Source: a virus
Virus record (IMG/VR): IMGVR_UViG_3300009514_000017
Span: 11,791-75,790 of that record
Length of the DNA: 64,000 nucleotides
Direction: 5' to 3' (one strand)
The notes under the pieces were generated by a model. It did no database searches. It saw only the letters and a list, made by a program, of their open reading frames with translations, and was not told the DNA's origin. Numbering within the stretch: the first letter of the stretch is position 1; the number at the start of each line of letters is the position of its first letter. Shown here piece by piece: positions 12,143 to 62,763 of this stretch. A program made the translations under genes and the position numbers.

Positions 12143-12168
12143 GCCACCCGCTTAGAAAGGGTGAAAGC

Positions 12169-33143: not shown

Positions 33144-33152
33144 GGGGTAGAA

Positions 33153-33183: not shown

Positions 33184-33194
33184 CTCATTACCTC

Positions 33195-35634: not shown

Positions 35635-35653
35635 TAGTCTTCCTCATGGATGA

Positions 35654-37048: not shown

Positions 37049-37131
37049 ATTCCTCCCGTCTCAGGGTGTGTTGAGCATCTCATAACACTCTGGGTCGTAC
37101 CTTGTCTCAGATTTTGGTTGGTTCTTGAAGG

Positions 37132-37458: not shown

Positions 37459-37466
37459 GTTCTCTC

Positions 37467-39269: not shown

Positions 39270-39689
39270 TCAACCTCTCGTTCCCACCCTCGGTGGTAGG
39301 GTGAGACCAGCGTTAACCGCAGATCTCATCTTCTTATCCTCGAAATACTGGATGAGATTGACGGCCAACTTCATCTGGTTCTCAGAGCTGAGACTAGTCG
39401 CCCACTGCGCAGCGACCGGAGCTATCTGTACAACCTCGTCATCTATGAATGCCAGGCTCATAGTGACAGCAGTCTCTATCATGCCCTCCGGACGCATCTG
39501 CCTAAGTATTGAGAACCTGATGGGGTTCTTCAGATCGATGGCCTGACCAGCGAGTGAAGCCGAACGCTCCACTTGCATAACCTCTCCTATCAAGAAATCA
39601 CTCCCATTGAAGTACGCGATTATAACTCGGCTGAAGTTGCAACCGTAGTCGCAGCTGAGAGTTTCAATTAGCTCTTTAACCCTCCTCAT
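39270..39689 (-). CDS. Hypothetical protein (Sm-like beta pattern possible; start uncertain)
   Basis: GSDFLIGEV..IDLKNP pattern; fills the gap between helicase and UDG. Confidence 0.5.
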   Translation of the reverse strand: MRRVKELIETLSCDYGCNFSRVIIAYFNGSDFLIGEVMQVERSASLAGQAIDLKNPIRFSILRQMRPEGMIETAVTMSLAFIDDEVVQIAPVAAQWATSLSSENQMKLAVNLIQYFEDKKMRSAVNAGLTLPPRVGTRG

Positions 39690-41145
39690 CTCTGAGATCT
39701 TGTTCTGATAGTCTTCTGAGCTCATCGTCATACAATCCTTGTAGTTCTGGGGGTAGTGTTTGAGGTTGTATAGAAGGATTCACTTGGTTGAATGTGTACC
39801 CCCAATGCTTCAGATCTCTTCTGACTGACTGACACATACGTTTCAAGGTAGGCATGGTCCAGTCTTCGAAGATTACGAAGATGGGGTTGGGTTTGCCAGG
39901 CAGGAATCTCTGTATCCTGCCCATTGACTGCTGAAGAGACGTCTTGGCTTTGAATGGTGTCAACCAGAACAACAGATCTAGCTCGTCATCATCTACGCCT
40001 TGAGATCCTAGTCTCGAGATGGCAAAGCACACTCGACTGTTCCGAAGCACGTCTGTTCTCTCATGCTTCGGAGTTTCCTGAATGATGATCCCAGACTCCG
40101 GGAATATGGCGTGCATCAATTTCAACTGCGCTTTGGAGTGAGATAGGCAGAGAACCTTCCTGCCCTGATCCAACGCTGTCTTGATGTGCCAATAGCGGTA
40201 GATGTTGCTGGTTAAGTCCACCCCTAGTGCGCTTCGGACGAGTGAGATGTTTCTCGTTGCTCCGATCAGACCGACGTTCGGATCCAACATGACTGGGGTG
40301 CGCTGGAAGAAGATGTCTGGAATTAGATCTTGAGTCAGGTCCGTGTAGAACGGGAGACCGATGTTGCTGGTATAGATTGGATCTAGTCCATCTTCTCTCT
40401 TGACTGTTGCTGTTAGCCCAATTCGGTTTCCAAAGAACGGTGGTGCGGTCAGGCTGAACTTCGGAGCACCAATCTGGTGAACTTCATCGTAGACGATCAG
40501 TCCGTAGTAGCGGAACATCTCTTCTGGAACTTCCCCCTTTTCTATCTTCTGCCAGAGCGTGGTGACCAAAGCTATGACTAAGGGTTTTTGCCACTCGAAC
40601 TTCTTCCCACTGATGATCCCGACACGACCCTTGAAGTTCAACCCTGGATCTTGCTCTCTCCCCTCGGTGTCGTCACCATAGATCGCACGCTCCCATTGGT
40701 CCATGATCCCCCCATCAGGAACAACGACTAGGGTTGGGGCTCCAACCTGTGCTATTTTCTTCAGTGCTAACTTAGTTTTGCCTTTCCCACAAGCCAGATT
40801 GAAGATGCCGTTGTCGTGAGTAGCTAGTGCCTGCCACGCCTTCTCCTGATCTTCGTTTCGAGGGATAACAAGATCTTGGAACTCGACTTTTTGGAATGTA
40901 GGACGTAGATCTACAAACTCGAAATCGTATTTGGGGTAGTCAGCAACTGATACGAATTCTCTAGGAGTGATAATGTGGTGCTCGGATTCCTCCCAGAGAT
41001 GTATTACTATCTGTCCATCAGGAGTTGGGACCGAGAACTCGAGCGCAGACTTCACCCAGTGAGGTCTGATGTGCCTCTTTGGTAGCCACAATCTATTGGA
41101 GATGTAGGCTTTATCAGGGTCCTTGCGGTAGAACTCCAGATTCAT
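39676..41145 (-). CDS. Superfamily 2 DNA helicase (UvsW/XPB-like)
   Basis: Q motif (PRNEDQ), LACGKGKT, LVVVP, DEVH, GLTAT, QSMGRIQR. Confidence 0.9.
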   Translation of the reverse strand: MNLEFYRKDPDKAYISNRLWLPKRHIRPHWVKSALEFSVPTPDGQIVIHLWEESEHHIITPREFVSVADYPKYDFEFVDLRPTFQKVEFQDLVIPRNEDQEKAWQALATHDNGIFNLACGKGKTKLALKKIAQVGAPTLVVVPDGGIMDQWERAIYGDDTEGREQDPGLNFKGRVGIISGKKFEWQKPLVIALVTTLWQKIEKGEVPEEMFRYYGLIVYDEVHQIGAPKFSLTAPPFFGNRIGLTATVKREDGLDPIYTSNIGLPFYTDLTQDLIPDIFFQRTPVMLDPNVGLIGATRNISLVRSALGVDLTSNIYRYWHIKTALDQGRKVLCLSHSKAQLKLMHAIFPESGIIIQETPKHERTDVLRNSRVCFAISRLGSQGVDDDELDLLFWLTPFKAKTSLQQSMGRIQRFLPGKPNPIFVIFEDWTMPTLKRMCQSVRRDLKHWGYTFNQVNPSIQPQTLPPELQGLYDDELRRLSEQDLRDEEG

Positions 41146-41826: not shown

Positions 41827-41859
41827 TCGTTGACTGTAGACTATCCAGCTGCCTACACT
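41827..41859 (+). promoter_or_regulatory. sigma70-like promoter TCGTTGACT-N18-TACACT
   Basis: TTGACT at 41830-35 and TACACT at 41854-59; start of a + strand unit. Confidence 0.65.
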
Positions 41860-41871
41860 CGGACCTGATGG

Positions 41872-43005
41872 ATGGCTCATGTCCTGGAGATCAAGATGAA
41901 AACTGCCGGTGTTGTGTTCGACTTCTACGATGACCCTTCCGGAGAGATTCTGAAGACGGCTTTCCCTACTCAGGAAGCACTACCAGGTTTGATCAAGACG
42001 GCGCATATCCTCAACGATATGGAGAGGAAGGTTCTTAGAGACGAAGCTTACGCGCTCGTGTTTGAAAACGATGGAGTTACTCTTCGCAAGTTTGCCTGTA
42101 TAGACCCAGGAAACACCCTGATGTCAGCTGTCTATTTTGAGAAGACGGCTTACAAGCTTCCAGAGGAGCTTAGAGAAGAGGCTCGGACCAAGATAGCTTC
42201 GAGGCTGAAGGAGTTCTTTCCGCCAGATCCACTGGACAAGCTGGCAGTTCATCTTGGGATGTCAAAGAAGCGCGACCCAAGGAAGATGAAGGACGACAAC
42301 TCTGGCCAGAAAGATTGGGAGGATAGGACAAATATGGTTCAGGGGTTCGTTGAGGGAGATGATTCTCCTGGTGCAGCTCAGACCAAGACTTCTATGCCGG
42401 TAGCATACGATGAGGTTAAGGCAGCGGTTCAGTATTTCAATGATCTGTGGCCAGAGATGTCACCGCTACAGAGGCATGAGTTCGCAGAGAAGACTGCATC
42501 TCGAGCTGATGAGCTAGGCATCGAGGTTTCTGACAGGATGCGTAGGTATGGGTCTACATCTTACGCAGAAGATGTAGACGATCACCTGACGTCCCGCGCA
42601 GCCCATGCTCCTGTATACAAGGAGGTGTATGCCTCCTTGAAGGAGAAGAGGGCCAGTCTGGAGCCAGAGGAGTTTGCAGTTCTGCTTCAGACGGCTGACG
42701 ACTCCGCAGACCTAGTTCGGTTCTACGGCGGTGTTATTCAAGACCCGTACTTCTCGACCTTTGGATACGTTGACAAGCTGGCATCTTGGTCATGGACTGG
42801 CCCGACCGGGGACCATGTGAACTCCGAACAGTTGGATCGTCTGGCGCGCAATGCCAGGCCGCTGCTGAAGAAGCACTTCAGTGACGAAATGGTAGATGAG
42901 TTTTGTAAGAGCCCGGTCGAGATCTTCGAGTCTCTTCCAGATGACATGAAGATCATCTTGTCCAGGTTGGGGAGTGACGAGTTCACCAACTTCGGTGAGA
43001 ACTGA
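41872..43005 (+). CDS. Putative head/scaffold-associated protein rich in K-x-A sites
   Basis: 377 aa containing KTAG, KTAF, KTAH, KTAY, KIAS, KLAV, KTAS, KRAS and KLAS. Upstream of the portal-like gene. Confidence 0.5.
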   Translation: MAHVLEIKMKTAGVVFDFYDDPSGEILKTAFPTQEALPGLIKTAHILNDMERKVLRDEAYALVFENDGVTLRKFACIDPGNTLMSAVYFEKTAYKLPEELREEARTKIASRLKEFFPPDPLDKLAVHLGMSKKRDPRKMKDDNSGQKDWEDRTNMVQGFVEGDDSPGAAQTKTSMPVAYDEVKAAVQYFNDLWPEMSPLQRHEFAEKTASRADELGIEVSDRMRRYGSTSYAEDVDDHLTSRAAHAPVYKEVYASLKEKRASLEPEEFAVLLQTADDSADLVRFYGGVIQDPYFSTFGYVDKLASWSWTGPTGDHVNSEQLDRLARNARPLLKKHFSDEMVDEFCKSPVEIFESLPDDMKIILSRLGSDEFTNFGEN

Positions 43006-44180: not shown

Positions 44181-44713
44181 TTGATTATTCAGCCTTCACT
44201 GATGAGCTGGAGAAGATTGGTGGAGTAGGAACCTTTCTTCAGAAACAGATCAAAAACGTTGGCAACACGATTAATGACTTTGCTAATCCCATAAAATCCA
44301 TGAAGGCTGGATGGGAGTCTGGTGCTGCCGGTAGATCGTTTGGTGGATGGGGCGGTAAGCTACTGACAGACAAAAATAAGCCGTCGTTCTGGCGTCATCT
44401 ACCTGTAGGACCCAAGGCTCAGATAACAGGCTTTACTGCACTTGAAGCTCCAGGCGCCCTCGCCAAAGAAGACCCTAGTGGCGAGGGGCGATCTCGTCTG
44501 CGTCGTGTATCTGGAACCCTTGGTGGGACCGGAGGTTTTTTGGTCGGTGGTAGACATGGACTCCTTGGCTCTCTGGTTGGTGGAGCCATTGGCCAGAAGA
44601 TGTTGAGTGGGTCTGTAGGATTAGGGGAGAGCACTGTAGAAGCTGTCAAGCAACTCAAACGTCAGAGAAAGTTTAATGCATTGAATACAACGCAGACCCC
44701 CGTGGGGCCGTAA
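44177..44713 (+). CDS. Gly-rich (glycine-zipper) protein with N-terminal AFTDELEKIG tag
   Basis: ATGA overlap at 44177; GTLGGTGGFLVGG..GLLGSLVGGAIG. Confidence 0.65.
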   Translation: MIDYSAFTDELEKIGGVGTFLQKQIKNVGNTINDFANPIKSMKAGWESGAAGRSFGGWGGKLLTDKNKPSFWRHLPVGPKAQITGFTALEAPGALAKEDPSGEGRSRLRRVSGTLGGTGGFLVGGRHGLLGSLVGGAIGQKMLSGSVGLGESTVEAVKQLKRQRKFNALNTTQTPVGP

Positions 44714-46719
44714 TGTCGTCAGATCTAGACTTCTACAACTCCCTGTCTGGCGTATCCAGATTCTCTGGTGTTCGTGGTCGGCTCTCGCAAGGTGGGTCGT
44801 TTCCAGCTCGCTATCCATCCCCATTCTTCGATCTCGGTCATACTTGGCTACCACACTCGATTGGCAAGCTGCATCAGTGGTGCCGCTACTATTACCTAGT
44901 CAATCCACTGATCAATGCCGTCATTCACAAGATGGCGGAATATCCAATCACTGAGATTGTCGTCAACGAGGTAAACAAGACCACCAAGGAAAAGTGGGAG
45001 CACATTCTAGGACAGCATCTTCGTATTCGTGCGTTCCAGGTAGAAGCTGGCCTCGACTACTTCACTTACGGGATCTGCATTATCACGATGCACTTCCCAT
45101 TCGAGAAGTATCTCGCTTGCACGAACTGCAAGTTCGAGGACAAGGCCAGCAACCTCAAGTACAAGTGGCGCAACCTGAACTACATCCTTCGTTGTCCCAA
45201 GTGTGACCACGAGGGGCCAACCAAGGTTCGAGACCAGTACCTGAAGGACTTCCGTCGAATCAGGTTGATGAGATGGAATCCAGAGTACGTCTACATAGAG
45301 CAGGGGTTTGCTGGCGCGGAGCCCATCTACACTTTTATGGTTCCGAAGGGTCTCAAAAACGAGATCATGATGGGCAAGACCCGCGTTCTCAACACGGTTC
45401 CAGATATCTACATTGAAGCGTTGAAGCGCAACAGGAATATAGCGTTCGCTCCAGAGAACATGTTCGTGATGAAGCGGCCAATCATCTCTCAGAGAGAGAC
45501 GGGTTGGGGTATGCCTCTCATCCTTCCTGTTCTGAAGGACGCTTTCTACCTTCAGATCTTGCGCAAGTCTCAGGAAGCTATAGCTTCTGAGCATATCGTT
45601 CCACTTCGTGTTCTGTTCCCTCAGGCAGGAAGCGGAACGAGCGATCCATATACCTCAATCCCAATTGAGTCTTGGAGGTCCCGTATAGAGCGTGAGATCA
45701 CCAAGTGGAAGTACGACCCAAACTACATTCCTGTTCTTCCTCTACCTATTGGGTCTCAGTCCATTGGTGGAGATCAGAAAGCTTTGAATCTGCACCAGGA
45801 GATCAGCCTCTGGTCTGAGCAGATCGTTGCAGGAATGGGAGTGCCGAGAGAGTTCGTGTTCGGCGGCCTTACATTCTCTGGCTCCAACGTGTCGATGAGG
45901 ATGTTGGAGAACGCTTTCATCAACTACCGTATCGACCAAGACAACCTCTTGAATGAGTTCATCATCAGGAGAGTTGCAGACTACATGGGTTGGCCATCGG
46001 TGCGCGTATCTATGCGCAAGTTCAAGATGGCAGACGATCTACAGAGGATGAGCTTCCAGTTCCAGCTCAACCAGGCAATGAAGATCTCAGACGAGTCTCT
46101 GTTGAAGGAATGCGACCACGATCCAGTAGTTGAGAAGGAGCGCAAGGAGCGTGAGGTTGGAGCTCAACTCGAGTACCAGCGCAAGATGCAGCTATCACAG
46201 GCTGAGACTCAGGGTCAGATGTTGCTTGTTCAGTCTCGCTATCAGGCTGCTGCCCAAAGCATGTTGGCTCCGGCTATGCCTGTGCAGCCTGGAGCTCAAC
46301 AGGGTGCAGCACAGCTCGGTGGCCAGCAGGGTGAGATGGTTTCAGGAGACCAACTTGGAATTCCTGGAGTTCCTGGTGACGTTTCTGTCTCTCCAGAGAA
46401 TGCTCAACAGCAGCCAGTTGAAGGAGTTCCGACTGAAGCTCAGAGTCCTCTCAGCATGAACACACAGGGTGCTGGGATAGACATTAGGTACGTTGCTAAG
46501 AGGGTACTGGCTCAAATCCAGAAGCTGTATGCCCAAGATCCACAGCAGGCGAACATGAAGCTTGAGGAGATCAGGGCATCCAATCCACAGCTATATAGTC
46601 TTCTCATCCAGATGGCTAACAGTAGGGTTGGCTCTCAAACCGATCCACTAAATCCGGTTCAGTCTCCGCAGCCACAGGTGAAGCCACCTCGTAGCCCCAA
46701 GTCTCCAGCGGCTGCGTGA
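44713..46719 (+). CDS. Portal protein (putative) with Zn-ribbon insertion
   Basis: CRYYYLVNPLINAVIHKMAEYP, GWGMPLILP, IVAGMGVPREFVFGG..SGSNVS and a Q/P-rich tail give a portal-like layout. CTNC..CPKC insert. Confidence 0.7.
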   Translation: MSSDLDFYNSLSGVSRFSGVRGRLSQGGSFPARYPSPFFDLGHTWLPHSIGKLHQWCRYYYLVNPLINAVIHKMAEYPITEIVVNEVNKTTKEKWEHILGQHLRIRAFQVEAGLDYFTYGICIITMHFPFEKYLACTNCKFEDKASNLKYKWRNLNYILRCPKCDHEGPTKVRDQYLKDFRRIRLMRWNPEYVYIEQGFAGAEPIYTFMVPKGLKNEIMMGKTRVLNTVPDIYIEALKRNRNIAFAPENMFVMKRPIISQRETGWGMPLILPVLKDAFYLQILRKSQEAIASEHIVPLRVLFPQAGSGTSDPYTSIPIESWRSRIEREITKWKYDPNYIPVLPLPIGSQSIGGDQKALNLHQEISLWSEQIVAGMGVPREFVFGGLTFSGSNVSMRMLENAFINYRIDQDNLLNEFIIRRVADYMGWPSVRVSMRKFKMADDLQRMSFQFQLNQAMKISDESLLKECDHDPVVEKERKEREVGAQLEYQRKMQLSQAETQGQMLLVQSRYQAAAQSMLAPAMPVQPGAQQGAAQLGGQQGEMVSGDQLGIPGVPGDVSVSPENAQQQPVEGVPTEAQSPLSMNTQGAGIDIRYVAKRVLAQIQKLYAQDPQQANMKLEEIRASNPQLYSLLIQMANSRVGSQTDPLNPVQSPQPQVKPPRSPKSPAAA

Positions 46720-47858: not shown

Positions 47859-47891
47859 TCGTTGACCTAATCAGCACCTGACCTGTACTCT
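47859..47891 (+). promoter_or_regulatory. sigma70-like promoter TCGTTGACC-N18-TACTCT upstream of the RNAP gene
   Basis: TTGACC at 47862-67 and TACTCT at 47886-91. Confidence 0.6.
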
Positions 47892-47966
47892 CAGCATCGT
47901 CCAGGCTCGAAAACCCAAGGCGCTGGGTAGAGCCTCTCTTCACCGAGCGCGTCTTAGGTGAGGTAC

Positions 47967-50900
47967 ATGGCACGCATATCCCCGACTGAGGTCTTTGATG
48001 GCCTCAAGAAAAACACAGTCGAGTCCATCAAGTCCTACTTCCCGTTTGAAGAGGGAGGTAAGAGGCTTGAGGTCGAAGACGTTTGGGTCGATGACAAACT
48101 GGACGTCAACGATATTCAATCACAACAGAAGGCCAAGCTCGATGACAAGACCTGGGGTGTAAAGGTCAAAGCCAAGATGAAGCTCACCGATATCAAGACC
48201 GGCAAGGTCTTGGATCGAGCTACGTCCAGTGTGGCCACTCTGCCGAAGATGACGAATCGCTTCGGCTACATCGTTGGTGGAAACGAGTATCAGGTAGACA
48301 ATCTCTTCAGATTGAAGAGCGGTGTCTACACCCGAATCCAGAACAACGGCGAGTTGGAGTCTGAATTCAACTTGGCCAAGAGCCCTGTGGGTGGTCGCGG
48401 GTTCTCGGTCCACTTCGATCCAGAACGCAAGAAATTCTCGCTTCTCTACAAGACAGCCAAGATTCCACTCCTCCCAATCCTCAAGAGCATGGGGATGGCA
48501 GACGATGACATCAAGAAGAACTGGGGCAAGGAGATCTACGAGGCGAACTCCCCCAAGTCTCAGAAGGCTTATGACCAAGCACTGTTGGATTTCCAGACCA
48601 AGACCAGTGGAGATGCCACGTTCAAAGGGTCGAAAGATCCTAAGGAGTACATCAAGGAGTTCTTTCATCAGTCTGAGTTGCGACCAGACACGACCTCCAT
48701 CACTCTAGGAAAGCCATTCGATAGAGTGAGCCACGAGGTTCTATCGATTGCAGCCAACAAGGTTCTCGGTGTGTCTCGAGGAACCAACGAGCCTGACGAC
48801 CGTGACAGTCTGGCGTTCAAGGAAATCACCTCCACCGAGGACTTCATTCCAGAGAAGATCGAGAGGTCTGCTAGGGCTATCCGGGGCAAGCTTCGTCAGA
48901 CTATGGGGAGGAAAGACAAGATCAAGGAGATTATCCCTTCCGGTGAAAGAGGTCTGTTTGGTCAGCCAGTACATGACTTCTTTACCAAGGGCGGGTCTGT
49001 TGCTGAGTTGTCTGACCAGACCAACCCATTGCAGATCTTGTCTGCACATCGCAAGACTACCTTGATGTCAGAGCAGTTCGGCGGCATGAAGTCCGAACAC
49101 TCTCTCACCCCAGAGATGAAGGTGGTCAACCCTAGCCACATAGGGTTCCTTGACGTGATGAAGACTCCCGAAAGCAGTCGCTCGGGTATCACCGTCAATC
49201 TATCGCTACAGGCACAGAAGAGAGGTAAGGAGCTCGAGGCTCCTGTCTTTGATCTGAAGTCAAAGAAGTTGAAGTACGTCTCAGCCCACGAGTTTCATGG
49301 ACGCAATTCTGTATTGCCAGACCAAGTCAAATGGGTTGATGGCAAGCCGGTGCCTATAGCCAGCCGTGTCAAGATGAAGGTCGTTGGCGGGGCGATAGAA
49401 GAGCGTCCGTGGACCGACGCAGATTCTGTAATGCCAACTGCCAAGGGCATGTTTGACTTCACCTCGAACATGATTCCTTTCTTGCCGTCAGACCAGGGCA
49501 ACCGTGTGTCGATGGCAGATAAGCAGATGGAGCAGGCTATTAGCCTGAAGCATCGAGAAGCTCCACTCGTTCAGACCAAGACCGAGAAGGAAAAGACGTT
49601 CGACAAGGTGTTGGGAAACTTTGCCTCTCAGAGATCACCCGTTGCCGGGAAAGTAACCGCAGTTAGAGGTAATCAGGTTACGGTCAAGGACGCGAAGAAC
49701 AAGAGTCATAATGTCCACTTGTACGATCACTTCCCTACCAATGACCCAAAGGGAATGTTCCATTCCGAATCGTCTGTGAAGGTCGGAGACCATGTCTCAA
49801 AAGGCGATACTCTGGCGGATACCAACTTCACAAAGGGTGGAAACCTAGCACTTGGAACCAACCTCCGAGTTGGTTACGTGCCATTCAAGGGCTACAACTT
49901 CGAAGACGGTGTCGTCGTATCTGAGACGGCATCTAAGAAGTTGACCTCCGAACATCTGTACAAAGAGTCACTATCTGTGTCCCCAAACGATGGGGATCGT
50001 ATTGACAAGAATAGATTTGTTGCGGTGGCCAAGCGCAAGATCGCTCAGATGCAGCCAGGAGAGCTGGACGCCATTGGTAGTGATGGTGTGGTCCGCGTTG
50101 GTTCACATGTTCAACCAGGTCAGGTGTTGGTTACTGCGGTTGGTAAAAGCAACCTGGACAAGAGAGATCATGCTCTAGGTTCATTCGGTCGTAGAGCCAT
50201 GTCATTGGAGAAGGACAAGTCTCTGGTTTGGAACCACTCCAGTCCTGGAAAGGTGGTTCGTGTAGTCAAGAGCCCTAATGGTAAAGAGATAAAGGTTCAC
50301 GTCAAGACTGAGGAACCTTTGGTCGTCGGCGATAAGGTGGCCGGACGCCACGGTAACAAGGGCATCGTCACTAAGATTCTTCCCGATGACGAGATGCCAT
50401 TTACTGTTGATTCTAAGACCAAGGAGAAGAGGCCCATACACGTCCTTCTCAACCCGACCGGCGTGCCTTGCTACGACGATAAGACTGAATTCTTGACCGA
50501 CACTGGATGGGTTCAAGCTCCCAAGATCCATGAAGAGCATCGGTTCGCTACGATCAACCCGAAAACTCTAACTCTTGAATTCCAAGATCCAGAGGAGGTT
50601 TACCACATACCTTACACGGGTAAGATGTACAGGATTCAGAACCAGCAGCTTGACCTACTAGTTACTCCTCACCACAAGCAGTTCACTGCCAAGAGAGGGA
50701 ACCAGAAGCTGTATGGAGCGTTGGATTTAGATGACCAGGAGCTTCCGTCTCTGTTTTCATTGGATGAAGCACAGGAAATCATAGGCCAACCAAGGCGGTA
50801 TCTAAAGGCTGCTAAGTGGAAAGGTGATAGCGCGGCTTTCTACTATATAGAGCCTGGAACTTACGCTGGAGTAGGGCCTAAGCCTACTCATGGAATGAAC

Positions 50901-53900
50901 ATCCCAGCATCTATCTGGGCTGAGTTCATGGGATGGTTCTTGTCTGAAGGAAGCACGTACTTCAACAAGGCTAACTACAGCTACGTTACAGAGATTTCCC
51001 AAGACAAGAATGTAAATCCAGAAAACTATGATCGCATTCGTACGGTCATGGAATTCTTTGGGCTTACGTTGGAGGAGACGGACTCTGGTATTCGCGTTAA
51101 GCACAAGGGCTTATTTGAACGACTGGCTTTGTTGGGTAAGGCTCGAGAGAAGTATATTCCTAGAGAGATCTTGGACATGGAGCCACGGCATTTAAGGCTA
51201 TTCCTAGATGCTGCTGTACGAGGTGATGGATCTGAGACTTGGGATGCAGAGACGGGTCACTACGGTAACAAGAAGTATTGGACTGCTTCTAAAAGGTTGG
51301 CTGATGGGATTCAGGAAGTAGCTGCCAAGCTTGGAATTGCAGCCAATATAAAGCGTGAGAGTCGTAGAGGTGATGACGCTTGCTACTACATTTCTTTGAG
51401 TGGGAGTCGTTTAGCGCCATGGGTAAATTGGTCATCAACGACTAAGTCTAACCAGGTTGAAGAGTGGGAGGACTACGACGGAGTAGTTCACTGCGCTACA
51501 GTTCCGAACGGAACTCTCTTGGTTCGTAGGAATGGAAAGGCAGTCTTCAGCGGGAATACAAGAATCAACGTTGGTCAGGTTCTAGAGACAGCAGCAGGGA
51601 AGATTGCTGAGAAGACTGGTAAGCCTTTCATAGTCGACAACTTTGGTGACCCCAAGTCCAACAATCGCAAGATGGTAGCGGATGCTCTTAAGGCACACGG
51701 GCTCACTGATGAAGAAGATGTCTACGACCCGAGCAATGTGAAGAAGCCAATCGGTTCCGTCCTGGTTGGTCCACAGCACATACTCAAGTTGCAGCACCAG
51801 GTTGAAAAGAAGCTTACCTCCCGTGGTGGTTCAACTACTGCTGGTGGAGCTGGACTCAAGTTCGACAGTGACAGGCAGCCACAGAAGGGTGGGGAGCACG
51901 GGTCTCAGGGATTTGGTCAGCTGGAACTCTACTCGTTGCTTGCACATGGGGCCAAGCACAACATCCGTGAGTTTGCCACGTACAAGTCCGACGAACAGAA
52001 TGAGCAGTTCTGGGCGCAACTACAGTCCGGTAGAGAGCCGCCACCTCCAAAGGTGCCATTCGCTTACAACAAGTTTGAAGCTCTCCTAAAGGGGTTGGGT
52101 GTCAATGTAGAGAAGCATGGAACTGAGATTCAACTTCTACCATCAACAGACAGGCAGACTATTGCTGCTGCTGGTGGAGCGTCTGGGGAATTGAAGAAAG
52201 CCAACTTGACGTTGCAGTCAAAGACCCTCAGGGAAGAAAAGGGTGGTCTGTTCGACAAGATGGTGACAGGCGGCAAGGATGGAAACAACTGGAGTTACAT
52301 CAAGCTTACAGACCCAATGCCAAATCCAGTGTTCGTTGGCAGTGGAAACCTACCAGGTCCAATCCCTGCACTCCTAGGCATGAAGATCAAGGATGTCGAA
52401 GACGTGATGAAGGGCAAGACCAAGCTTCATGGGAAAACTGGCGGAGAGGCAATCAAGGAGGCTCTTTCCAAGATCAACGTGACTGCCGAGTTGGCAAAGA
52501 CTAAGGGCAGGCTTCATGGGTTGACGGGATCTGAGTTGGATAGGGCCAATAAGAGGTTCAAGTATCTGTCTGTACTCAAGGACAAGAACCTTCGTCCCGA
52601 AGACGCTTACATGATGTCGGCAGTTCCGGTTCTTCCACCGAAGTTCAGACCGGTTCAGGAGTTGCCAACAGGTGATCTCAGTGTCCACCCACTCAACGGC
52701 ATGTATAAGAACATCGCCATCCTCAACCAGAAGCTGGTGCAAGCAAAGGCGGACAAGAATCTGGATGATGATCGCACGGAGTTGGCTGCTGATCTGTACG
52801 ACAAGATGAAAGCGTTGCAGTCCGTTGGTGGTTCTTCTGCTTTCGATCTGGATTCCCCAAACAGCAAGCGTAAGTTGAAGGGAATCATGGAGACCATTGC
52901 TGGAACCAATGCTCCAAAGGAAGGCTACTTCCAGGACAGGTTGGTAAAGAAGCGTTTGGGTATGTCGATGAGATCTACCATCACTCCAGAGCCACGATTG
53001 AGCCTGGATGAGGTTGGCATTCCTAGAAACGCTGCCATGGAGATGTACAAGACTTACGTTCAGGCAGAACTAGTGAAGCATGGTATCTCGAGGCCAAGAG
53101 CTGACTTGATGATTCGTCAGAATGATCCTGTTGCTCATAAAGCTCTAGAGACAGTGATTGGTGATAGACCTGTAATCTTGAAGAGAGACCCAGCCCTACA
53201 CAAGTTCAGTGTAATGGGATTCAAGCCAAAGATCGTTGAGGGAAAATCTATTCAGATCCACCCTCTCGTGACCGGCGGTTTCAACGCGGACTTTGACGGC
53301 GATCAACAGCTTGGATCAGTACTTGTGAACGTTTCAGAGGAGATATACAACTCCGACTTGGACTTTTGGAAGCCAAGGCGGTGCAAGGTGAGTGCAAGGT
53401 TTGAAGAGGTAGTTGGGTTTGAGTTCAACGGTTATTTCGCAGTGTGTAACTTGGAGGACTTTCCCCGTAGTGAGCTAGTGGGAACCAAGGACCACATTGA
53501 ATTTTGGACTGTTCCAGAAGGGGTCAAGGTAGCAGCTGTAGATGAAGCTTCTGGCAAGGTGACGCTGACTAAGGTGTCCCATTGGTCTCTTCATCTTGCG
53601 CGCAAGATTGAGATCGTCAATCTGGGAAGTGGGCGTCAGATTATTACTGACGACGATGAGCGCGCTGTCTACGGGCTCGATGCTTCTTCACTCGAGTGGT
53701 GCCGCCGTCGACCCAAGGACGCAAAGCTTCAGTTCGTGCCAGTGGTTGATGAGTCACCTCGTCTAGAGTCTTTCCTATCTGAGGTCCCTCTTCCCAGCAG
53801 TCCAAGGCTCAAGGCGACAGCTACCCTAGACGAGTCCTTCGGTTACTTCATGGGGGCTATGGTTGGAGATGGGTGGGCCTCTTTTGCTGAAGGCACTCCA

Positions 53901-56846
53901 AGGGCTATCAATATTGCGTCTAGCTACGGAGATGTAGATACAGCTTGGAAGTCCTCGCTTCTATCCATCTTCAAGGACGCTCCAACAGTTACGAGATCTG
54001 AAGCTACTGAGGGCAAGTTGGGTAACTCCACTGGCTCTACTCGTTTTACAGTCAGCTGTGTTGCTGCGGCTAAGTTCATTGCAAAAACCTTAGGACGGTC
54101 AGCGCAGAAGAAGCATCTCCCAACCTTTGCTACGGCGGCTCCGAAGAGTTTCATCCTTGGACTCCTAGGTGGGCTTTGGGATACCGATGGTTCGATGTCT
54201 TGGTCAAAAGCTAAGGCTAAGAAACAGTTCATGTGCTCGTATTCATCTACAAGCATTCGACTTGTCCAAGAGATTCAGTATCTCCTAAGGATGTTGGGGG
54301 TCTCTGCATCTATTACCCCAACAGAAACTCCAGCAGGTGGACCAGCTTGGGTGTTGACGGTGTCAACTGTCGACCTTTACCGAATAGGTGGGTTTCCAGT
54401 TCACCATTCGGATAAGAAGGCACATCAGACTGAGTTCTTGAACGGTGCCAAGCCAGATGATCGGATGGCGTACAGCCGTTACCGTCTGGTTCCTACCCCT
54501 TCCGCTCTAGCCTCAGAGATGAGGTCTGTCATTGGCTCAAAAGAAGATCGAAGCTTGTACATCACGCTCTCAAAGGCCATTGAGCGTCAGTACATGTCGA
54601 AGAACATGGCGGAGAAGCTTCTCGATATCGACTGCTCGCATCCTCTGTTCAACAAGTGGAAGTCTATAGTTCAGATGCCTGGGGTTCACTTCGAGAGAGT
54701 TGATAGCGTTGAGGTCACGAATATTAGAGAGGATGGGTACGACCTAACGGTTCCTGATCATGAGACTTTCATGTCCATCGACGGAATTGTTCTCTCCAAC
54801 ACGATGGCTGCAACCATTCCAATGACTCAGGAGGCGGTAGCCGAAGCACGGAAGATGTTCCCATCGAAACACCTTTTCTCCTCCACGAACTTTGGTGTGA
54901 TGCACACCCCAGGTCAGGAAGCCATCATCGGCTTGAACCTTATGACACGTTGGGGAAAGAAAACTAATAAGAAATTCAGGGACATAGCCTCTGCAAAGAA
55001 GGCTTATAAAGGTGGGTCTATAGAGCTGACCGACGTCATCGAGCTGACTGGGTCCAAGGGTCCAACCACTGTTGGCAGGTTGATGATTGCTGAGAAGATG
55101 CCTCATGGTTTCTCTGGCAACCACGGCATCATGCACGACTCCAAGTTCGAGTTCACCAAGAAGTCCATCAAGCAAACGGCTACCAAGATTGCCAATGAGA
55201 AGCGTGGTCAGTTCGCCAATGCGATGGACAACTTGAAAGACCTAGGAAATGAGTTCTCGTACTCTCAGGGGTTCTCGTTTGGGCTGAAAGATCTGGAGAC
55301 TCTACCAAGGAGGGATTCCATCCTTGCAGCGGCAGACAAGAAGGCGGCGGTCGTCAGGAAGACAGTCAAAGATCACAAGAAGCAGGAGTTGATGCTGGCC
55401 AAGATCTATGAGGACGCCACCAATCAGATGGAGAAACACGCCGTCGAACACTTCGTCAAGGGTGGAAGAAAGAACCGATTGATGTCCATGGTGTACTCCG
55501 GCTCTCGTGGTTCGGAGTCACAGCTAAGGCAGATGATCGCGGCTCCTATGATGATGATCGACCACAGTGGAAAGGTGATCACCAACCCAGCAAGGAAGAG
55601 TTATTCCGAAGGTCTGGATATCGGTGACTATTGGAAGACCCAGCACGGAGCCAGGAAGGGGACGTTGGATAGGGCAGTAGGAACTCAGGAGCCCGGGGCG
55701 CTTACCAAGGACATCCTCAACTCAACTATGAACATCCATGTAGTCTCCAAGGACTGCATGACTACACAAGGTGTTCATATGGCTCTAGAGTCTAGTGACG
55801 GCAGTACACCTCCAGACATCTTCGACCGATACACCTCTGTTCCGTACACATTGAAGTCAGGAAAGAAGGTTCCAGCAGGCTCAGTCATCACTCCGGCGCT
55901 GGTCGATCAGTTGAAGGAATCCAAGATCAACAAGATCTTGTGCAGGTCGCCACTGAAGTGCCAGCACGGAAAAGGAATCTGCTCGAAGTGCTTTGGTTTG
56001 AACGAGAACGGGGAGCTACATTCTGTTGGAACCAACATCGGTGTGCTGGCTGGTCAGGCATTGGGTGAGCCTGTTACTCAGATGGCGATGGATGCCTTCC
56101 ATTCGGGTGGTGTTGCTGGAGCAGCAGGTGCTCAAAAGGTTGACAAGTTCACCAGACTGAAGCAGCTCTTGAACGTGCATCAGACGTTGAAGGACTCAGC
56201 CACCCTGGCTCGAGTGTCTGGAACTATTACGTCCGTCAAGAAGGATGCAGCAGGTGGTCTAGATATTTTCATTGGTAAGGAGCGCCATTACGTTCCAGCC
56301 AAGCTAGTGAATGATGGCATCAAGGTTGGAACCAAGATTATCAGAGGTCAGTCACTTTCCCACCCGTCATCTCCAGTCAACCCACACCACCTACTTGGCG
56401 TGACTGGAGATATGAGTAGAGTCCAGAACTACATCACTGAAGAGTTGGCTGAGGGACCTTACAAGGGGAGGCTGCGTCGTCGTAACGTTGAGGTAGCAGT
56501 TCGTGGCCTGACGAATGTGGCTACAGTGACTGGCAGTGGAACCAACAGCCCTTGGCAACCTGGTGATAAGGTTCCGCTGTCGGTTATTGAGATGCACAAC
56601 AGGAAGTTGAAGAAGAAGGACAAGCCTGTGGAGTTCTCTCCACAGTTGGTTGGCTCTCAGCAGGTTCCTCTCACCTCTACGGATTGGATGGCTCGCTTGA
56701 ACTATCAGAGGTTGCCATCAACAATCATGCAGGCGGCATCGCAGGGATGGAAGTCTGATATTCACGGCCAGCATCCGATCCCTGGCATAGTGTACGGTGC
56801 AGAGTTTGGTAAACCACCCAAGGGCAAGCTGCCGGGGTCGTACTGA
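47967..56846 (+). CDS. rpoBC: Fused beta-beta' DNA-directed RNA polymerase precursor with two inteins
   Basis: Beta motifs: DQTNPL, GYNFEDG, GDKVAGRHGNKG, NPTGVP/TRINVGQ, GFGQLE. Beta' motifs: PVLPP, KRDPALH, NADFDGD, GARKG, CQHGKGICSKCFG, GEPVTQ. All in one frame. ATG 47967 preferred over GTG 47958. Confidence 0.95.
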   Translation: MARISPTEVFDGLKKNTVESIKSYFPFEEGGKRLEVEDVWVDDKLDVNDIQSQQKAKLDDKTWGVKVKAKMKLTDIKTGKVLDRATSSVATLPKMTNRFGYIVGGNEYQVDNLFRLKSGVYTRIQNNGELESEFNLAKSPVGGRGFSVHFDPERKKFSLLYKTAKIPLLPILKSMGMADDDIKKNWGKEIYEANSPKSQKAYDQALLDFQTKTSGDATFKGSKDPKEYIKEFFHQSELRPDTTSITLGKPFDRVSHEVLSIAANKVLGVSRGTNEPDDRDSLAFKEITSTEDFIPEKIERSARAIRGKLRQTMGRKDKIKEIIPSGERGLFGQPVHDFFTKGGSVAELSDQTNPLQILSAHRKTTLMSEQFGGMKSEHSLTPEMKVVNPSHIGFLDVMKTPESSRSGITVNLSLQAQKRGKELEAPVFDLKSKKLKYVSAHEFHGRNSVLPDQVKWVDGKPVPIASRVKMKVVGGAIEERPWTDADSVMPTAKGMFDFTSNMIPFLPSDQGNRVSMADKQMEQAISLKHREAPLVQTKTEKEKTFDKVLGNFASQRSPVAGKVTAVRGNQVTVKDAKNKSHNVHLYDHFPTNDPKGMFHSESSVKVGDHVSKGDTLADTNFTKGGNLALGTNLRVGYVPFKGYNFEDGVVVSETASKKLTSEHLYKESLSVSPNDGDRIDKNRFVAVAKRKIAQMQPGELDAIGSDGVVRVGSHVQPGQVLVTAVGKSNLDKRDHALGSFGRRAMSLEKDKSLVWNHSSPGKVVRVVKSPNGKEIKVHVKTEEPLVVGDKVAGRHGNKGIVTKILPDDEMPFTVDSKTKEKRPIHVLLNPTGVPCYDDKTEFLTDTGWVQAPKIHEEHRFATINPKTLTLEFQDPEEVYHIPYTGKMYRIQNQQLDLLVTPHHKQFTAKRGNQKLYGALDLDDQELPSLFSLDEAQEIIGQPRRYLKAAKWKGDSAAFYYIEPGTYAGVGPKPTHGMNIPASIWAEFMGWFLSEGSTYFNKANYSYVTEISQDKNVNPENYDRIRTVMEFFGLTLEETDSGIRVKHKGLFERLALLGKAREKYIPREILDMEPRHLRLFLDAAVRGDGSETWDAETGHYGNKKYWTASKRLADGIQEVAAKLGIAANIKRESRRGDDACYYISLSGSRLAPWVNWSSTTKSNQVEEWEDYDGVVHCATVPNGTLLVRRNGKAVFSGNTRINVGQVLETAAGKIAEKTGKPFIVDNFGDPKSNNRKMVADALKAHGLTDEEDVYDPSNVKKPIGSVLVGPQHILKLQHQVEKKLTSRGGSTTAGGAGLKFDSDRQPQKGGEHGSQGFGQLELYSLLAHGAKHNIREFATYKSDEQNEQFWAQLQSGREPPPPKVPFAYNKFEALLKGLGVNVEKHGTEIQLLPSTDRQTIAAAGGASGELKKANLTLQSKTLREEKGGLFDKMVTGGKDGNNWSYIKLTDPMPNPVFVGSGNLPGPIPALLGMKIKDVEDVMKGKTKLHGKTGGEAIKEALSKINVTAELAKTKGRLHGLTGSELDRANKRFKYLSVLKDKNLRPEDAYMMSAVPVLPPKFRPVQELPTGDLSVHPLNGMYKNIAILNQKLVQAKADKNLDDDRTELAADLYDKMKALQSVGGSSAFDLDSPNSKRKLKGIMETIAGTNAPKEGYFQDRLVKKRLGMSMRSTITPEPRLSLDEVGIPRNAAMEMYKTYVQAELVKHGISRPRADLMIRQNDPVAHKALETVIGDRPVILKRDPALHKFSVMGFKPKIVEGKSIQIHPLVTGGFNADFDGDQQLGSVLVNVSEEIYNSDLDFWKPRRCKVSARFEEVVGFEFNGYFAVCNLEDFPRSELVGTKDHIEFWTVPEGVKVAAVDEASGKVTLTKVSHWSLHLARKIEIVNLGSGRQIITDDDERAVYGLDASSLEWCRRRPKDAKLQFVPVVDESPRLESFLSEVPLPSSPRLKATATLDESFGYFMGAMVGDGWASFAEGTPRAINIASSYGDVDTAWKSSLLSIFKDAPTVTRSEATEGKLGNSTGSTRFTVSCVAAAKFIAKTLGRSAQKKHLPTFATAAPKSFILGLLGGLWDTDGSMSWSKAKAKKQFMCSYSSTSIRLVQEIQYLLRMLGVSASITPTETPAGGPAWVLTVSTVDLYRIGGFPVHHSDKKAHQTEFLNGAKPDDRMAYSRYRLVPTPSALASEMRSVIGSKEDRSLYITLSKAIERQYMSKNMAEKLLDIDCSHPLFNKWKSIVQMPGVHFERVDSVEVTNIREDGYDLTVPDHETFMSIDGIVLSNTMAATIPMTQEAVAEARKMFPSKHLFSSTNFGVMHTPGQEAIIGLNLMTRWGKKTNKKFRDIASAKKAYKGGSIELTDVIELTGSKGPTTVGRLMIAEKMPHGFSGNHGIMHDSKFEFTKKSIKQTATKIANEKRGQFANAMDNLKDLGNEFSYSQGFSFGLKDLETLPRRDSILAAADKKAAVVRKTVKDHKKQELMLAKIYEDATNQMEKHAVEHFVKGGRKNRLMSMVYSGSRGSESQLRQMIAAPMMMIDHSGKVITNPARKSYSEGLDIGDYWKTQHGARKGTLDRAVGTQEPGALTKDILNSTMNIHVVSKDCMTTQGVHMALESSDGSTPPDIFDRYTSVPYTLKSGKKVPAGSVITPALVDQLKESKINKILCRSPLKCQHGKGICSKCFGLNENGELHSVGTNIGVLAGQALGEPVTQMAMDAFHSGGVAGAAGAQKVDKFTRLKQLLNVHQTLKDSATLARVSGTITSVKKDAAGGLDIFIGKERHYVPAKLVNDGIKVGTKIIRGQSLSHPSSPVNPHHLLGVTGDMSRVQNYITEELAEGPYKGRLRRRNVEVAVRGLTNVATVTGSGTNSPWQPGDKVPLSVIEMHNRKLKKKDKPVEFSPQLVGSQQVPLTSTDWMARLNYQRLPSTIMQAASQGWKSDIHGQHPIPGIVYGAEFGKPPKGKLPGSY
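50469..51557 (+). mobile_element. Intein 1 (363 aa, class 1, LAGLIDADG homing endonuclease) in the beta region
   Basis: GVP|CYDDKTEFLT..VTPHH..FMGWFLSEGS..AVRGDGS..VHCATVPNG..FSGN|TRINVGQ. Removal restores the conserved NPxGVPSRMNxGQ motif. Confidence 0.9.
53304..54800 (+). mobile_element. Intein 2 (499 aa, atypical Gln1, LAGLIDADG) directly after catalytic NADFDGD
   Basis: NADFDGD|QQLG..FMGAMVGDG..LWDTDGS..GYDLTVPDHETF..IVLSN|TMAATIP. Removal restores a NADFDGD-xMA-like active-site loop. Confidence 0.85.
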
Positions 56847-57991
56847 TGGCAGTCAGGACCACACCATTTAGGGTTGGCTCTCGACTAGTAGAGGTTGAGA
56901 AGTGTCGAATCATCGACGTTCACCCTTCTCGTTATACCGTTACGTTTGCCAACTATGGAGCCAACACTAGAATTCAGACCGTCTCTTTCGCGACTCCCTA
57001 TCAGCATTCGTACAATGGTGAGGGGATATACTTCATGCCAGAGGTTGGATCGGAAGCTTGGGTCTGCTGGCCATCGGAGGGTAACAAGCCATTCATCATG
57101 GGGTGGTGCCCATCCAGGCAGGTAGATGCTGGAGGCAACAACTACAAGAACAACAAGAAGGATTTGATCCCAGGAGACATCTTCCTGGGATCACGGGGTG
57201 GAAACTTCATTTATCTTCGTAGGGGAGGAATCATTCAGATAGGTGGTAGCCCTCTAGCGCAGAGAATGTATGTCCCCATAAACCACATGATTCGTGACAT
57301 CTGTGGTGTCTACAAGCTCCACACGTTTGCTGGAGACCTGGAGTGGGGAGTCCAGAGGGAAGAGAATTCGTCTACGGTGGAGACAGACAGGGCTTCTACT
57401 ACATCTGACGCCAAGAGACCGGCTACATTAACGTTGAAGGCCAGGGAGTATTCTGGAGACCCAAACCCGATTGCCACTCTTCGGGTAGGCTCTCATGAGG
57501 TTTCCCAAGGAGCCCCATCCAACACTATCCTGAGTTTGGAAATCAGAGACACTGGGTCTGCTGGCTCTACTCAGCAGGTCAAGCTGGAAATAGGCAAGGA
57601 TGGATCTGTTGTGTGGGACATTGAGCAAAACATCGCATGGACGGTGTCTGGCACAGCCTCTCTGTCTTCTGAAGGACAGTTGTCCCTTAGTTCTAAAGGA
57701 CAACTGTCCTTGTTCGGTGATGACGTCGTCTTGAATGCTACCGGAACTGGAAAGGATGTTTTGATCAAGTCCGACAGGGCTGACGTGGACATCCAGGGTA
57801 AGAACATCAAGGTTGGCAAGAAGGCGATAGCATCAGATCTCCCACCTGTAGGTATAGGTTGGAACCGGGTAGTGATAGCAACTCCAGCATTTATTAGTTG
57901 GTTGATCTCCCACACCCACGCTCCAGGTGGACCTCCACTCCCGTCTCTAGCTGCGTCTCTACCTACCGCTTCTGGACTATTTGCGAAGTGA
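56846..57991 (+). CDS. Baseplate central spike (gp5/gpV-like OB fold + beta-helix, HxH tip)
   Basis: GEGIYFMPEVGSEAWVCW..PFIMG OB-fold pattern, short beta repeats, and C-terminal SHTH. Confidence 0.75.
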   Translation: MAVRTTPFRVGSRLVEVEKCRIIDVHPSRYTVTFANYGANTRIQTVSFATPYQHSYNGEGIYFMPEVGSEAWVCWPSEGNKPFIMGWCPSRQVDAGGNNYKNNKKDLIPGDIFLGSRGGNFIYLRRGGIIQIGGSPLAQRMYVPINHMIRDICGVYKLHTFAGDLEWGVQREENSSTVETDRASTTSDAKRPATLTLKAREYSGDPNPIATLRVGSHEVSQGAPSNTILSLEIRDTGSAGSTQQVKLEIGKDGSVVWDIEQNIAWTVSGTASLSSEGQLSLSSKGQLSLFGDDVVLNATGTGKDVLIKSDRADVDIQGKNIKVGKKAIASDLPPVGIGWNRVVIATPAFISWLISHTHAPGGPPLPSLAASLPTASGLFAK

Positions 57992-61380: not shown

Positions 61381-62763
61381 ATGGGCGACTTCTCTCGATT
61401 CAGAGAGGGAGACACCTTGGACCTGGTGGTCCAGGAACATCGCGCGGACAGGGCGGGGAAACACTTCGACGTTCGTATAGGCACGAAGGACACCGGACTT
61501 CTTTCATGGGCTACTCGAAAGGGAATCCCAGGACCGAGTGGTAAGGTTGCCTTGTTTCAGCAACCAGTTCATCGGCATGAGTATGGTCAGTTCGAGGGTG
61601 AGATAGCTTCCGGGTACGGAAAGGGAACTGTCAGGAAACACGATTCGGGAAAGCTTCTGGTCACAAAGGTGGACAAAGGTTCAATCCATCTGACGCGATC
61701 AGACAAGAGGTTTCCCGAGCGATTCGTCCTGGCAAAGCCGAGAGGGGACAACAAGCGTTGGTTGTTGATCAACTCTACTCCGACCGAGAAGGTGCCTTAC
61801 GACAAGATCAGGTATCGATCTGTGGCTCCCAAGGATGCCAAGAAGGTGTTGGACAACCTTCAGCCCGGTTCCTCTGTGCAAGCCAAGATAGATGGCGCAG
61901 CCGCGTTGACCAAGCTTTTGAAGGGCAGGGCAGAGGTTGTCTCTTACAGGGTGTCGAAAGAGACTGGTAGACCTATTGTCCACACGGAGAGGATGTTCAA
62001 GGGGAGGCCAACCATCTCGATCCCGAAGAAGTACGTCGGCTCAGTTCTGCGCGGAGAACTCTATGGGACCAAGGGGGGTAAGGTCATTCCGCCACAGGAG
62101 CTTGGTGGTATTCTCAACTCTTCCGTGGACAAATCTATCAGGCAGCAGGTAGAGCGTGGGGTAGAGCTCAAGAAGTCACTGTTCGACATCCAGCAGGTTG
62201 GTGCGGAGTCGACCAGAGCAATGGATTACCAGAGCAGGAGTAAGGTTCTCGAGGACATCATCCGGCATCTTCCTGAGGACAGGTTCGAGCTGTCTGAAGG
62301 AGTGTTGACTCCAAAAGACGCCAACGCTCTTCTCAAGAAAGTACTTTCAGGAAAGCATCCACTCACTCGTGAGGGTGTGGTAATCCACCCACCGATGGGT
62401 AAGCCAACCAAGATCAAGGCGCAACAGGAGCACGATGTCTATGTCACCGGAACTTTCCCAGGAAAAGGACGACTCCGAGACTCTGTTGGAGGAGTCACTT
62501 TTTCAACCTCTCCAGGTGGCAAGACGGTTGGCAAGATCGGAACAGGATTTTCGGATGCTCTTCGTAGTGAACTCGCTAGGAGTCCATCCGAGTACATCGG
62601 AAGAATCGCTCGTGTACGCAGCCAGGAGAGACTACCTTCAGGAGCTTTGAGAGCACCATCTCTCATAGCGCTTCACGAAGACTACCCGATGAAGAAGTCA
62701 GCACATCTTCTAAACGCTGCTAAGCTTCTGGGATTCGTAGACGAGCTACAGAAGGAGATTTGA
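61381..62763 (+). CDS. LigD-type 3'-phosphoesterase fused to ATP-dependent DNA ligase
   Basis: PE domain: VVQEH..HFDVR..SWA..H..Y..FEG.I..GYG.G.V. Ligase motifs: KIDG, LRGE, FDI, EGVV, KIK, GTGF, LRAP. Confidence 0.85.
   Translation: MGDFSRFREGDTLDLVVQEHRADRAGKHFDVRIGTKDTGLLSWATRKGIPGPSGKVALFQQPVHRHEYGQFEGEIASGYGKGTVRKHDSGKLLVTKVDKGSIHLTRSDKRFPERFVLAKPRGDNKRWLLINSTPTEKVPYDKIRYRSVAPKDAKKVLDNLQPGSSVQAKIDGAAALTKLLKGRAEVVSYRVSKETGRPIVHTERMFKGRPTISIPKKYVGSVLRGELYGTKGGKVIPPQELGGILNSSVDKSIRQQVERGVELKKSLFDIQQVGAESTRAMDYQSRSKVLEDIIRHLPEDRFELSEGVLTPKDANALLKKVLSGKHPLTREGVVIHPPMGKPTKIKAQQEHDVYVTGTFPGKGRLRDSVGGVTFSTSPGGKTVGKIGTGFSDALRSELARSPSEYIGRIARVRSQERLPSGALRAPSLIALHEDYPMKKSAHLLNAAKLLGFVDELQKEI

Follow-up and report, generated by a model that had tools for sequence, protein, structure and literature searches.

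Phage-encoded RNA polymerases (RNAPs) of the cellular type have so far been described in three forms: the heavily split enzymes of jumbo phages such as phiKZ and AR9, the single chains of crAss-like phages and of YonO, diverged beyond recognition, and the separate beta and beta-prime genes of the metagenomic mReC phages. The gene considered here occupies positions 47967..56846 (+ strand) of a 64,000-nucleotide stretch of viral DNA (the window), which corresponds to bases 11791-75790 of the 75,790-bp IMG/VR record IMGVR_UViG_3300009514_000017. It encodes beta and beta-prime in one chain that keeps a nearly complete bacterial architecture, and this chain, paired with a sigma70-type factor, would represent a fourth solution.

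The RNAPs of the phiKZ and AR9 jumbo phages are likewise phage-encoded two-barrel enzymes lacking alpha and omega, and one of their sets is carried in the virion (PMC7598289, PMC7824862). However, they are split into four to five polypeptides, come as two paralogous sets and have no sigma70-type factor, whereas the present locus has one chain, one set and a sigma. Subunits of that type are more distant, aligning to 39-45% of the beta query at 24-25% identity, and a comparative review of jumbo phages reports either RNAPs that are split and lack sigma or sigma factors in phages lacking an RNAP. In crAss-like gp66, in YonO and in the TMP-fused RNAP of P23-45, both barrels also reside in one polypeptide, and some of these enzymes are virion-delivered, but hardly any cellular accessory domains are left in them and Pfam detects no similarity to RpoB/RpoC, whereas here nearly the whole bacterial architecture is kept. 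The mReC phages (Weinheimer and Aylward 2020, PMC7481178) are tailed phages from metagenomes, in whose published description cellular-type beta and beta-prime branch outside Bacteria; the family here lies outside the sampled bacteria. In the rows of their table that were compared (about 50 of 97), beta (900-1560 aa) and beta-prime (900-1390 aa) are listed as separate open reading frames, and the text of that paper mentions fusion only for crAss-like phages. The Gp23 capsid family (PF07068) gave no match in any genome, controls included, and has no bearing on a link to mReC. The Moraphages (PMC12619734) proved unrelated and encode no RNAP.

Cultured relatives do exist, namely Salmonella phage Arash (OQ632216), which is still taxonomically unclassified, and the Vibrio phages D69, D148 and D181. 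The Arash RNAP is made of Gp206 (1525 aa) and Gp216 (606 aa), with Gp10 as sigma factor; its authors labelled Gp206 "beta" and Gp216 "beta-prime", and the fusion goes unmentioned (PMC10585845). These four phages share with the window the same fused junction, the loss of the beta-prime zinc-binding domain, a portal gene just upstream, an orthologous sigma and a single RNAP per genome, and they form the sister clade. In contrast, their polymerases are about 33% identical to the one described here and have beta-prime cut at E. coli ~551/573. The resulting C-terminal piece is encoded 4.7 kb away in Arash and only ~0.6 kb downstream in D181, whereas no such separate gene was found in the window, where the chain is continuous over residues 2364-2371. 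The RNAP genes of D181 (L002 11962-19944) and D148 are cut once more, at E. coli beta ~681, by an insert with a free-standing homing endonuclease gene, and that of D69 is uninterrupted there.

Architecture of the fused polymerase

The gene lies in a single stop-free frame of the + strand (47958..56846) that comprises 2962 codons when counted from the GTG at 47958. The likelier start is the in-frame ATG at 47967, which has AGGTGAGG just 5' of it and yields a protein of 2959 aa; the protein held for the same contig in a public collection (P0002) is identical and has the same length. Pfam models recognised Rpb2 domains 2, 3, 6 and 7 followed by Rpb1 domains 1-5, that is, the cellular order with beta before beta-prime (E-values of 4e-47 for Rpb2_6 and ~1e-22 for Rpb1_2 and Rpb1_5), as well as two insertions with LAGLIDADG, Hom_end and Intein_splicing signals. 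An earlier note, made from the letters alone, had proposed a single-chain, collinear bacterial-type RNAP on phage DNA, and the one frame, the domain order and the intact motifs confirm it. The phage identity of the contig is supported by its IMG/VR origin, by its portal, spike and replication genes, and by relatives of 197-210 kb with terminal repeats. Judged by their sequences, the members of this family are almost certainly functional RNAPs.

The two insertions, both inteins, delimit three exteins. Extein 1 (47967..50468, +) covers the N-terminal two thirds of beta, including the lobes, the Rif region, the flap and the catalytic GRHGNKG, and ends in LNPTGVP, equivalent to E. coli beta up to P1104. 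Extein 2 (51558..53303, +) joins the C-terminal clamp part of beta to the N-terminal part of beta-prime, with zipper, lid, clamp helices, rudder and NADFDGD, and is 47-63% identical to at least 120 fused relatives. Extein 3 (54801..56846, +) provides the remaining beta-prime, with the bridge helix, the second zinc site, a trigger loop without SI3 and the C-terminal region. BLASTP against Arash returned four colinear blocks that follow this division: window residues 8-836 correspond to gp206 14-829 (33% identity), 1198-1782 to gp206 828-1438, 2281-2363 to gp206 1438-1524, and 2371-2957 to gp216 7-605. The exteins add up to 2100 aa (2097 from the ATG), compared with 2749 aa for E. coli beta plus beta-prime, in agreement with the earlier estimate of about 2100 against 2750.

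That beta runs directly into beta-prime near 52100-52140 had also been anticipated, and a 21-row alignment with E. coli and other bacterial rpoB+rpoC pairs places the junction at 52107..52127 (+; window residues 1384-1390). There, the beta end GLGVNV (residue 1384, aligned to E. coli beta 1337) is connected by a linker of 4-6 residues, EKHGTE, to IQLLPSTD, which aligns to E. coli beta-prime IKIALASPD at about residue 20. A linker of 4-6 residues is common to every family member examined and to Arash. For the junction segment, AlphaFold gave a model of moderate quality (mean pLDDT 63, pTM 0.50, with pLDDT 70-93 in the beta-prime part), which serves only to show that beta-prime folds in a bacterial-like manner; in it, the two sides of the junction lie as neighbouring strands (segment residues 182-187 and 190-195). 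Bacterial beta-prime chains are the best PDB fold matches of the beta-prime part and account for all of the top 60 PDB sequence matches.

The catalytic landmarks had been described as recognisable and collinear with those of cellular enzymes, unlike in the split phiKZ RNAPs. Indeed, all of them were found, in one chain and one set: NADFDGD, the beta GRHGNKG, the bridge helix and the trigger loop are present and invariant over 24 family members, and so is the second zinc site (Cys2600/2668/2675/2678). The alignment shows that beta also keeps its flap, with a shortened tip, and that beta-prime keeps its zipper, lid, clamp helices, rudder and C-terminal conserved region. Among the missing elements is the N-terminal zinc-binding domain of beta-prime, reduced to 9 residues without Cys at E. 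coli 61-95, compared with 35 residues in every bacterial row of the landmark table. Also missing are the first ~19 residues of beta-prime, part of beta-prime 96-250, and the inserts SI1 and SI2 of beta and SI3 of beta-prime. The notion of a compact enzyme stands as far as the comparison with E. coli goes, but most of the difference reflects the absence of SI1, SI2 and SI3, which the rows of Firmicutes and of candidate phyla radiation (CPR) bacteria lack too. The smallest bacterial pair seen, that of the CPR bacterium L158 (with PNPase, TsaD, SHMT and RtcB genes alongside), has a beta of 1071 and a beta-prime of 1190 residues, 2261 aa in total, so that the true saving is ~160 aa, zinc-binding domain loss included, and not 650 aa.

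Strong divergence from bacterial sequences that are otherwise very uniform is seen in Rif cluster I, in the clamp helices and in the flap tip. It suggests that the phage RNAP is probably insensitive to rifampicin and has probably co-evolved with a phage sigma factor. Within Rif cluster I (window 48900-49050, beta residues ~340-375), several positions of resistance mutations (E. coli Q513, F514 and the H526/S531 region) are changed family-wide.

Family size and phylogenetic position

A search with the junction-spanning extein produced, among the matches listed, 120 clusters with the full fusion at 47-63% identity, on contigs of up to 210 kb. Proteins of 2040-2140 aa, hence intein-free, make up 92 of these clusters, and 20 have one insertion, 4 have two and 2 have three. 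In IMG/VR, a scan with an alignment query found at least 523 loci encoding a relative of the fused RNAP; in the best 80 of them, the match mostly extends over query residues 1 to ~2080 in one stretch, and in 77 one uninterrupted frame spans 1800 aa or more. Four relatives are complete (197-210 kb, three with direct terminal repeats), and each of them, as well as Arash, contains exactly one Rpb2_6 and one Rpb1_2 locus. The family is very large and essentially undescribed, and the source phage is a tailed phage of ~190-200 kb. Full-text literature searches, short of most subscription journals, turned up no paper that describes a phage RNAP of canonical type in fully fused form. The suspicion that the lineage might be partly catalogued is borne out only as far as database entries, none of them remarked upon, and the Arash genome paper go.

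The relationship with the bacterial enzymes was evaluated in a tree of 48 rows (16 family members, counting the window, together with Arash and Vibrio D181, plus 30 bacterial rpoB+rpoC pairs drawn from Patescibacteria, Planctomycetota, Bacteroidota, Bacillota and other groups), calculated with IQ-TREE from 2024 columns under the site-homogeneous LG+G4 model and left unrooted. All phage rows are set apart from all 30 bacterial rows with an SH-aLRT of 100 and a branch of 0.48 + 0.89 = 1.37 substitutions per site, and Arash plus D181 appear as sister of the fully fused family, also with a support of 100. Nesting within a bacterial clade, which the earlier note had named as the outcome that would speak against its proposal, was not seen among the 30 sampled bacterial rows, and bacterial sequences reach 27-33% identity at best, without any one phylum being prominent. 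The family thus lies outside the sampled bacteria. It adds a new branch to RNAP phylogeny, although calling it deep-branching goes beyond what the unrooted tree supports. In summary, the phage chain shares with bacterial RpoB/RpoC the domain order and the catalytic, bridge-helix, trigger-loop, lid, rudder, clamp-helix and flap elements, and it differs from them in its low identity and long branch, in the lost beta-prime portions (zinc-binding domain and first 19 residues), in the altered Rif cluster I, in the lack of accompanying alpha and omega genes and in being encoded by a virus.

Two family contigs, L091 (162 kb) and L092 (204 kb), are binned in metagenome-assembled genomes (MAGs) labelled Leptolyngbyaceae (a cyanobacterium) and Bacteroidales, respectively. 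The RNAP gene is accompanied by the portal gene and most other family genes in L091, and by the portal gene in L092; their placement reflects either binning contamination or weak hints about hosts.

The two inteins

Intein boundaries were set by an alignment of 24 sequences (the window and 23 intein-free relatives) plus Arash. Intein 1 (50469..51557, +; residues 838-1200, 363 aa) starts with Cys1, ends in Gly-Asn followed by Thr+1, and contains a LAGLIDADG homing endonuclease (Pfam Hom_end and LAGLIDADG_3); its flanks, P837 and R1202, are invariant. With the borders LNPTGVP/CYDD and VFSGN/TRINVGQ, it is located between positions equivalent to E. coli beta P1104 and S1105. It has the features of a class 1 intein, that is, C838 and N1200/T1201 at its ends, the interruption of a conserved motif (GVP/SR) and the Hom_end and LAGLIDADG signatures. 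It is missing from 92 of the 120 listed relatives, and an intein 55% identical to it is found at the same site in P0097. Seven other family proteins have intein 1 relatives of 28-32% identity at a second site, near beta residue 400.

Intein 2 (53304..54800, +; residues 1783-2281, 499 aa) begins with Gln-Gln, ends in Ser-Asn followed by Thr+1, and also contains a LAGLIDADG endonuclease (Pfam LAGLIDADG_3). Its invariant flanks are D1782 and T2282-M2283, and it is inserted directly after the third catalytic Asp (NADFDGD/QQLGS and IVLSN/TMAATIP), between E. coli beta-prime D464 and Q465. It departs from class 1 in its Gln-Gln start and in the TDDD that replaces the TxxH of block B, it retains the C-terminal Asn/Thr and the LAGLIDADG signature, and its Intein_splicing score of 29.9 bits is below the Pfam cut-off of 35.8. 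Gln-starting inteins, 31-44% identical, occur at the same site in five other clusters. In fact, the NADFDGD/TM site hosts three intein types in relatives, namely S[IV]DLDT...HN/T (~360 aa), [CST][CVA]LG...WD/T (~500 aa) and Q[QM]LG...SN/T (~500 aa), and the Gln type can be aligned to the Cys/Ser type only from residue 45 on. The family RNAP contains at least three intein hot spots, and some proteins, with three insertions, are 3367-3387 aa long. The gene is an intein hot spot, and among its inteins is an unusual Gln-starting type within the catalytic loop.

Sigma factor, gene neighbourhood and mode of action

According to the earlier note, no alpha, omega or sigma gene is to be seen in the window. 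At Pfam sensitivity this is correct within the window, but the phage does encode a family-conserved sigma70-like factor outside it, 8.7 kb before the window start (contig 2222-3094; L003:1198-2070). The NCBIfam sigma models cover regions 2-4 of this 290-aa protein with an E-value of ~1e-11, which is below their curated cut-offs, and the motifs of regions 2, 3 and 4 are recognisable. Orthologues were found in five of five genomes (the four complete relatives and Arash; E 5e-60 to 2.5e-14). That of Arash lies at 11919-12320, where the second Sigma70_r2 match of the record is, and on the basis of this match and of its position near the genome start we regard it as Gp10. An N-terminal amphipathic motif (AFDEIMEKLA, ALEWVLAKLA or AIQWVLEKIS) is common to close orthologues of the sigma encoded on the contig. 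The second Arash sigma, Gp196, had no match in the source contig or in the four complete relatives, and the window ORF at 41872-43005, considered as its counterpart, showed no similarity to it. The models for alpha (PF01000, PF01193) and omega (PF01192) gave no match in the four complete relatives and Arash, and matched 14 of 14 controls. A predicted complex of sigma residues 56-290 with the N-terminal part of beta-prime (1400-1782) had a median of 0.61, compared with 0.42 for a single control, and was counted for neither side.

The genes surrounding the RNAP gene are those of the particle. Upstream lies a portal-like gene (44713..46719, +), with a weak PHROG portal match and 32-33% identity both to the Arash portal gp204 region and to the D181 region just upstream of the RNAP gene, which is unannotated in D181. 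Downstream, a gpV/gp5-like baseplate spike gene (56846..57991, +) begins with a start codon that overlaps the RNAP stop codon by one base; its ESM Atlas features score 0.95-0.96 to Phage_base_V clusters, and its structure gives a TM of 0.6-0.68 by target. The portal-like gene precedes the RNAP gene in 73 and the spike gene follows it in 69 of 84 related loci, and the order portal, RNAP, spike and a 672-aa protein is kept in ~70 of the 84. The two downstream neighbours had no tblastn match in isolate phages, and ESM Atlas gave nothing usable for the 672-aa one.

A promoter-like element, TCGTTGACC-N18-TACTCT (47859..47891, +), is found 76 nt before the RNAP start codon. The pattern TCGTTGACN-N18-TANNCT has three exact copies in the window (12110-12142, 41827-41859 and 47859-47891), compared with 0.01 expected by chance. 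All of them are on the + strand, each heading a block of + strand genes, and the fuller form of this 33-nt element is TCGTTGAC[CT]-N18-TA[TC][AT]CT. The element probably represents a phage-specific promoter class, and because it is common to the blocks, the RNAP gene appears to be co-regulated with the structural genes. Relatives do not share the TCGTTGAC element ahead of their RNAP genes (a loose pattern occurs in 5 of 76), and a minus-strand motif, GGGCATAAG, is not enriched (7 found, 8.5 expected).

The information on the particle itself comes from Arash, in whose virions Gp206, Gp216 and the "RpoS" Gp10 were detected by mass spectrometry with a coverage of 89-100% (100% for Gp10), Gp206 being the most detected protein of all (PMC10585845). 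These data and the position of the RNAP gene in the structural operon, between the portal and tail-spike genes, support the explanation that we consider, as a whole, somewhat more probable than its negation: a sigma-dependent, alpha-less phage RNAP, probably delivered with the virion. In such a scheme, the gene would provide the sole RNAP of a tailed phage, with beta and beta-prime made as one polypeptide from which both inteins would splice out, leaving an enzyme of ~2100 aa. The covalent fusion would replace the assembly role of the alpha dimer and of omega, neither of which is encoded; E. coli tolerates an artificial tether between beta and beta-prime, and Helicobacter has a natural one. 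The phage sigma70-family factor would dock on the retained clamp helices and flap to allow promoter recognition. Polymerase and sigma would travel in the particle and enter the cell by injection, allowing phage transcription to begin with no help from the host polymerase. It is likely that the fused RNAP uses the phage sigma, and for virion delivery of the fully fused enzyme the chances are about even.

Several points weigh against this explanation. The source contig has a CheckV completeness of only ~40%, and the fully fused members are known from sequence alone, the virion evidence being that of a 33% identical relative, whose authors raised a possible carry-over of abundant proteins (PMC10585845). 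Intein 2 has no Cys, Ser or Thr at position 1, and its splicing is a prediction; a divergent analogue of alpha or omega would escape the Pfam models; and the tree has no outgroup and leaves out many bacterial phyla. Moreover, the promoter-like element resembles a sigma70 promoter, and host RNAP could transcribe the gene, in which case the phage enzyme would serve middle or late transcription only. The latter point and the carry-over are the basis of a different, rather unlikely scenario, analogous to the T7 scheme, in which host RNAP reads the gene from TTGACC-N18-TACTCT, close to a sigma70 promoter, the phage enzyme and its sigma then take over middle or late transcription, and their presence in Arash particles is incidental. 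One RNAP per genome, unlike the separate virion and non-virion enzymes of phiKZ, would suit that scenario. On the contrary, the location of the gene inside the portal-spike block family-wide, the high peptide coverage of both RNAP proteins and sigma in Arash virions, and the extended motif, whose presence ahead of each of the three structural blocks points to a phage-specific promoter class, do not.

Natural RpoBC fusions occur in Helicobacter and Wolbachia, and the Helicobacter one still uses alpha. The fused chain might depend on the host, either for assembly (alpha and omega) or for initiation (sigma), with the sigma-like protein redirecting the host core, as many phages encode sigma factors for that core. 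This hybrid arrangement seems improbable: the clamp helices and flap tip are kept but strongly diverged from the bacterial consensus, one sigma is conserved despite very different host groups (hosts being inferred only by binning), and the phiKZ and AR9 enzymes function without alpha (PMC7598289, PMC7824862). Even less likely is a dead copy, in which intein 2 would leave 499 aa in the active-site loop. The missing N-terminal nucleophile, the lost block B His and the sub-threshold Intein_splicing score are what one would expect of an intein unable to splice. However, the 8.9 kb frame is intact, every extein residue invariant in the 24-way alignment is kept, and the related Gln-type inteins lie in intact genes of five other clusters, which argues for long persistence under selection. 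Finally, a recently captured or mis-binned bacterial rpoBC, which the two members in MAGs with bacterial labels could suggest, is effectively refuted, since those contigs carry family genes around the RNAP gene and the distance from all sampled bacteria, in identity as well as in branch length, is very large.

If a sigma-dependent, virion-delivered enzyme is assumed, a further and more speculative proposal can be made, to which we give a smaller chance than to the explanation from which it derives. The family might represent the smallest self-sufficient transcription machine of cellular type, consisting of a ~2100-aa chain and a ~290-aa sigma that would perform promoter-specific transcription, devoid of alpha, omega and the zinc-binding domain, carried in the capsid and ejected along with the DNA. 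Were this true, a large, globally distributed group of ~200 kb phages would, from the first minute of an infection, need no host RNA polymerase. The family offers a natural setting in which to ask whether a beta to beta-prime tether can stand in for the assembly platform of alpha and omega, and a compact model for structural and synthetic-biology work on an orthogonal sigma-dependent RNAP. The cultured relatives Arash and Vibrio D69 make virion delivery directly testable.

Outside the structural blocks, and divergent from them, the window contains a replication module on the minus strand (28085-41145), with genes for a family A DNA polymerase with 3'-5' exonuclease, a DnaB-like helicase, a DnaG-like primase, a RecA/Rad51-like protein and an SF2 helicase. 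In the structural-strand block, the ORF at 61381-62763 combines a LigD-type 3'-phosphoesterase domain with an ATP-dependent DNA ligase, without a polymerase domain.

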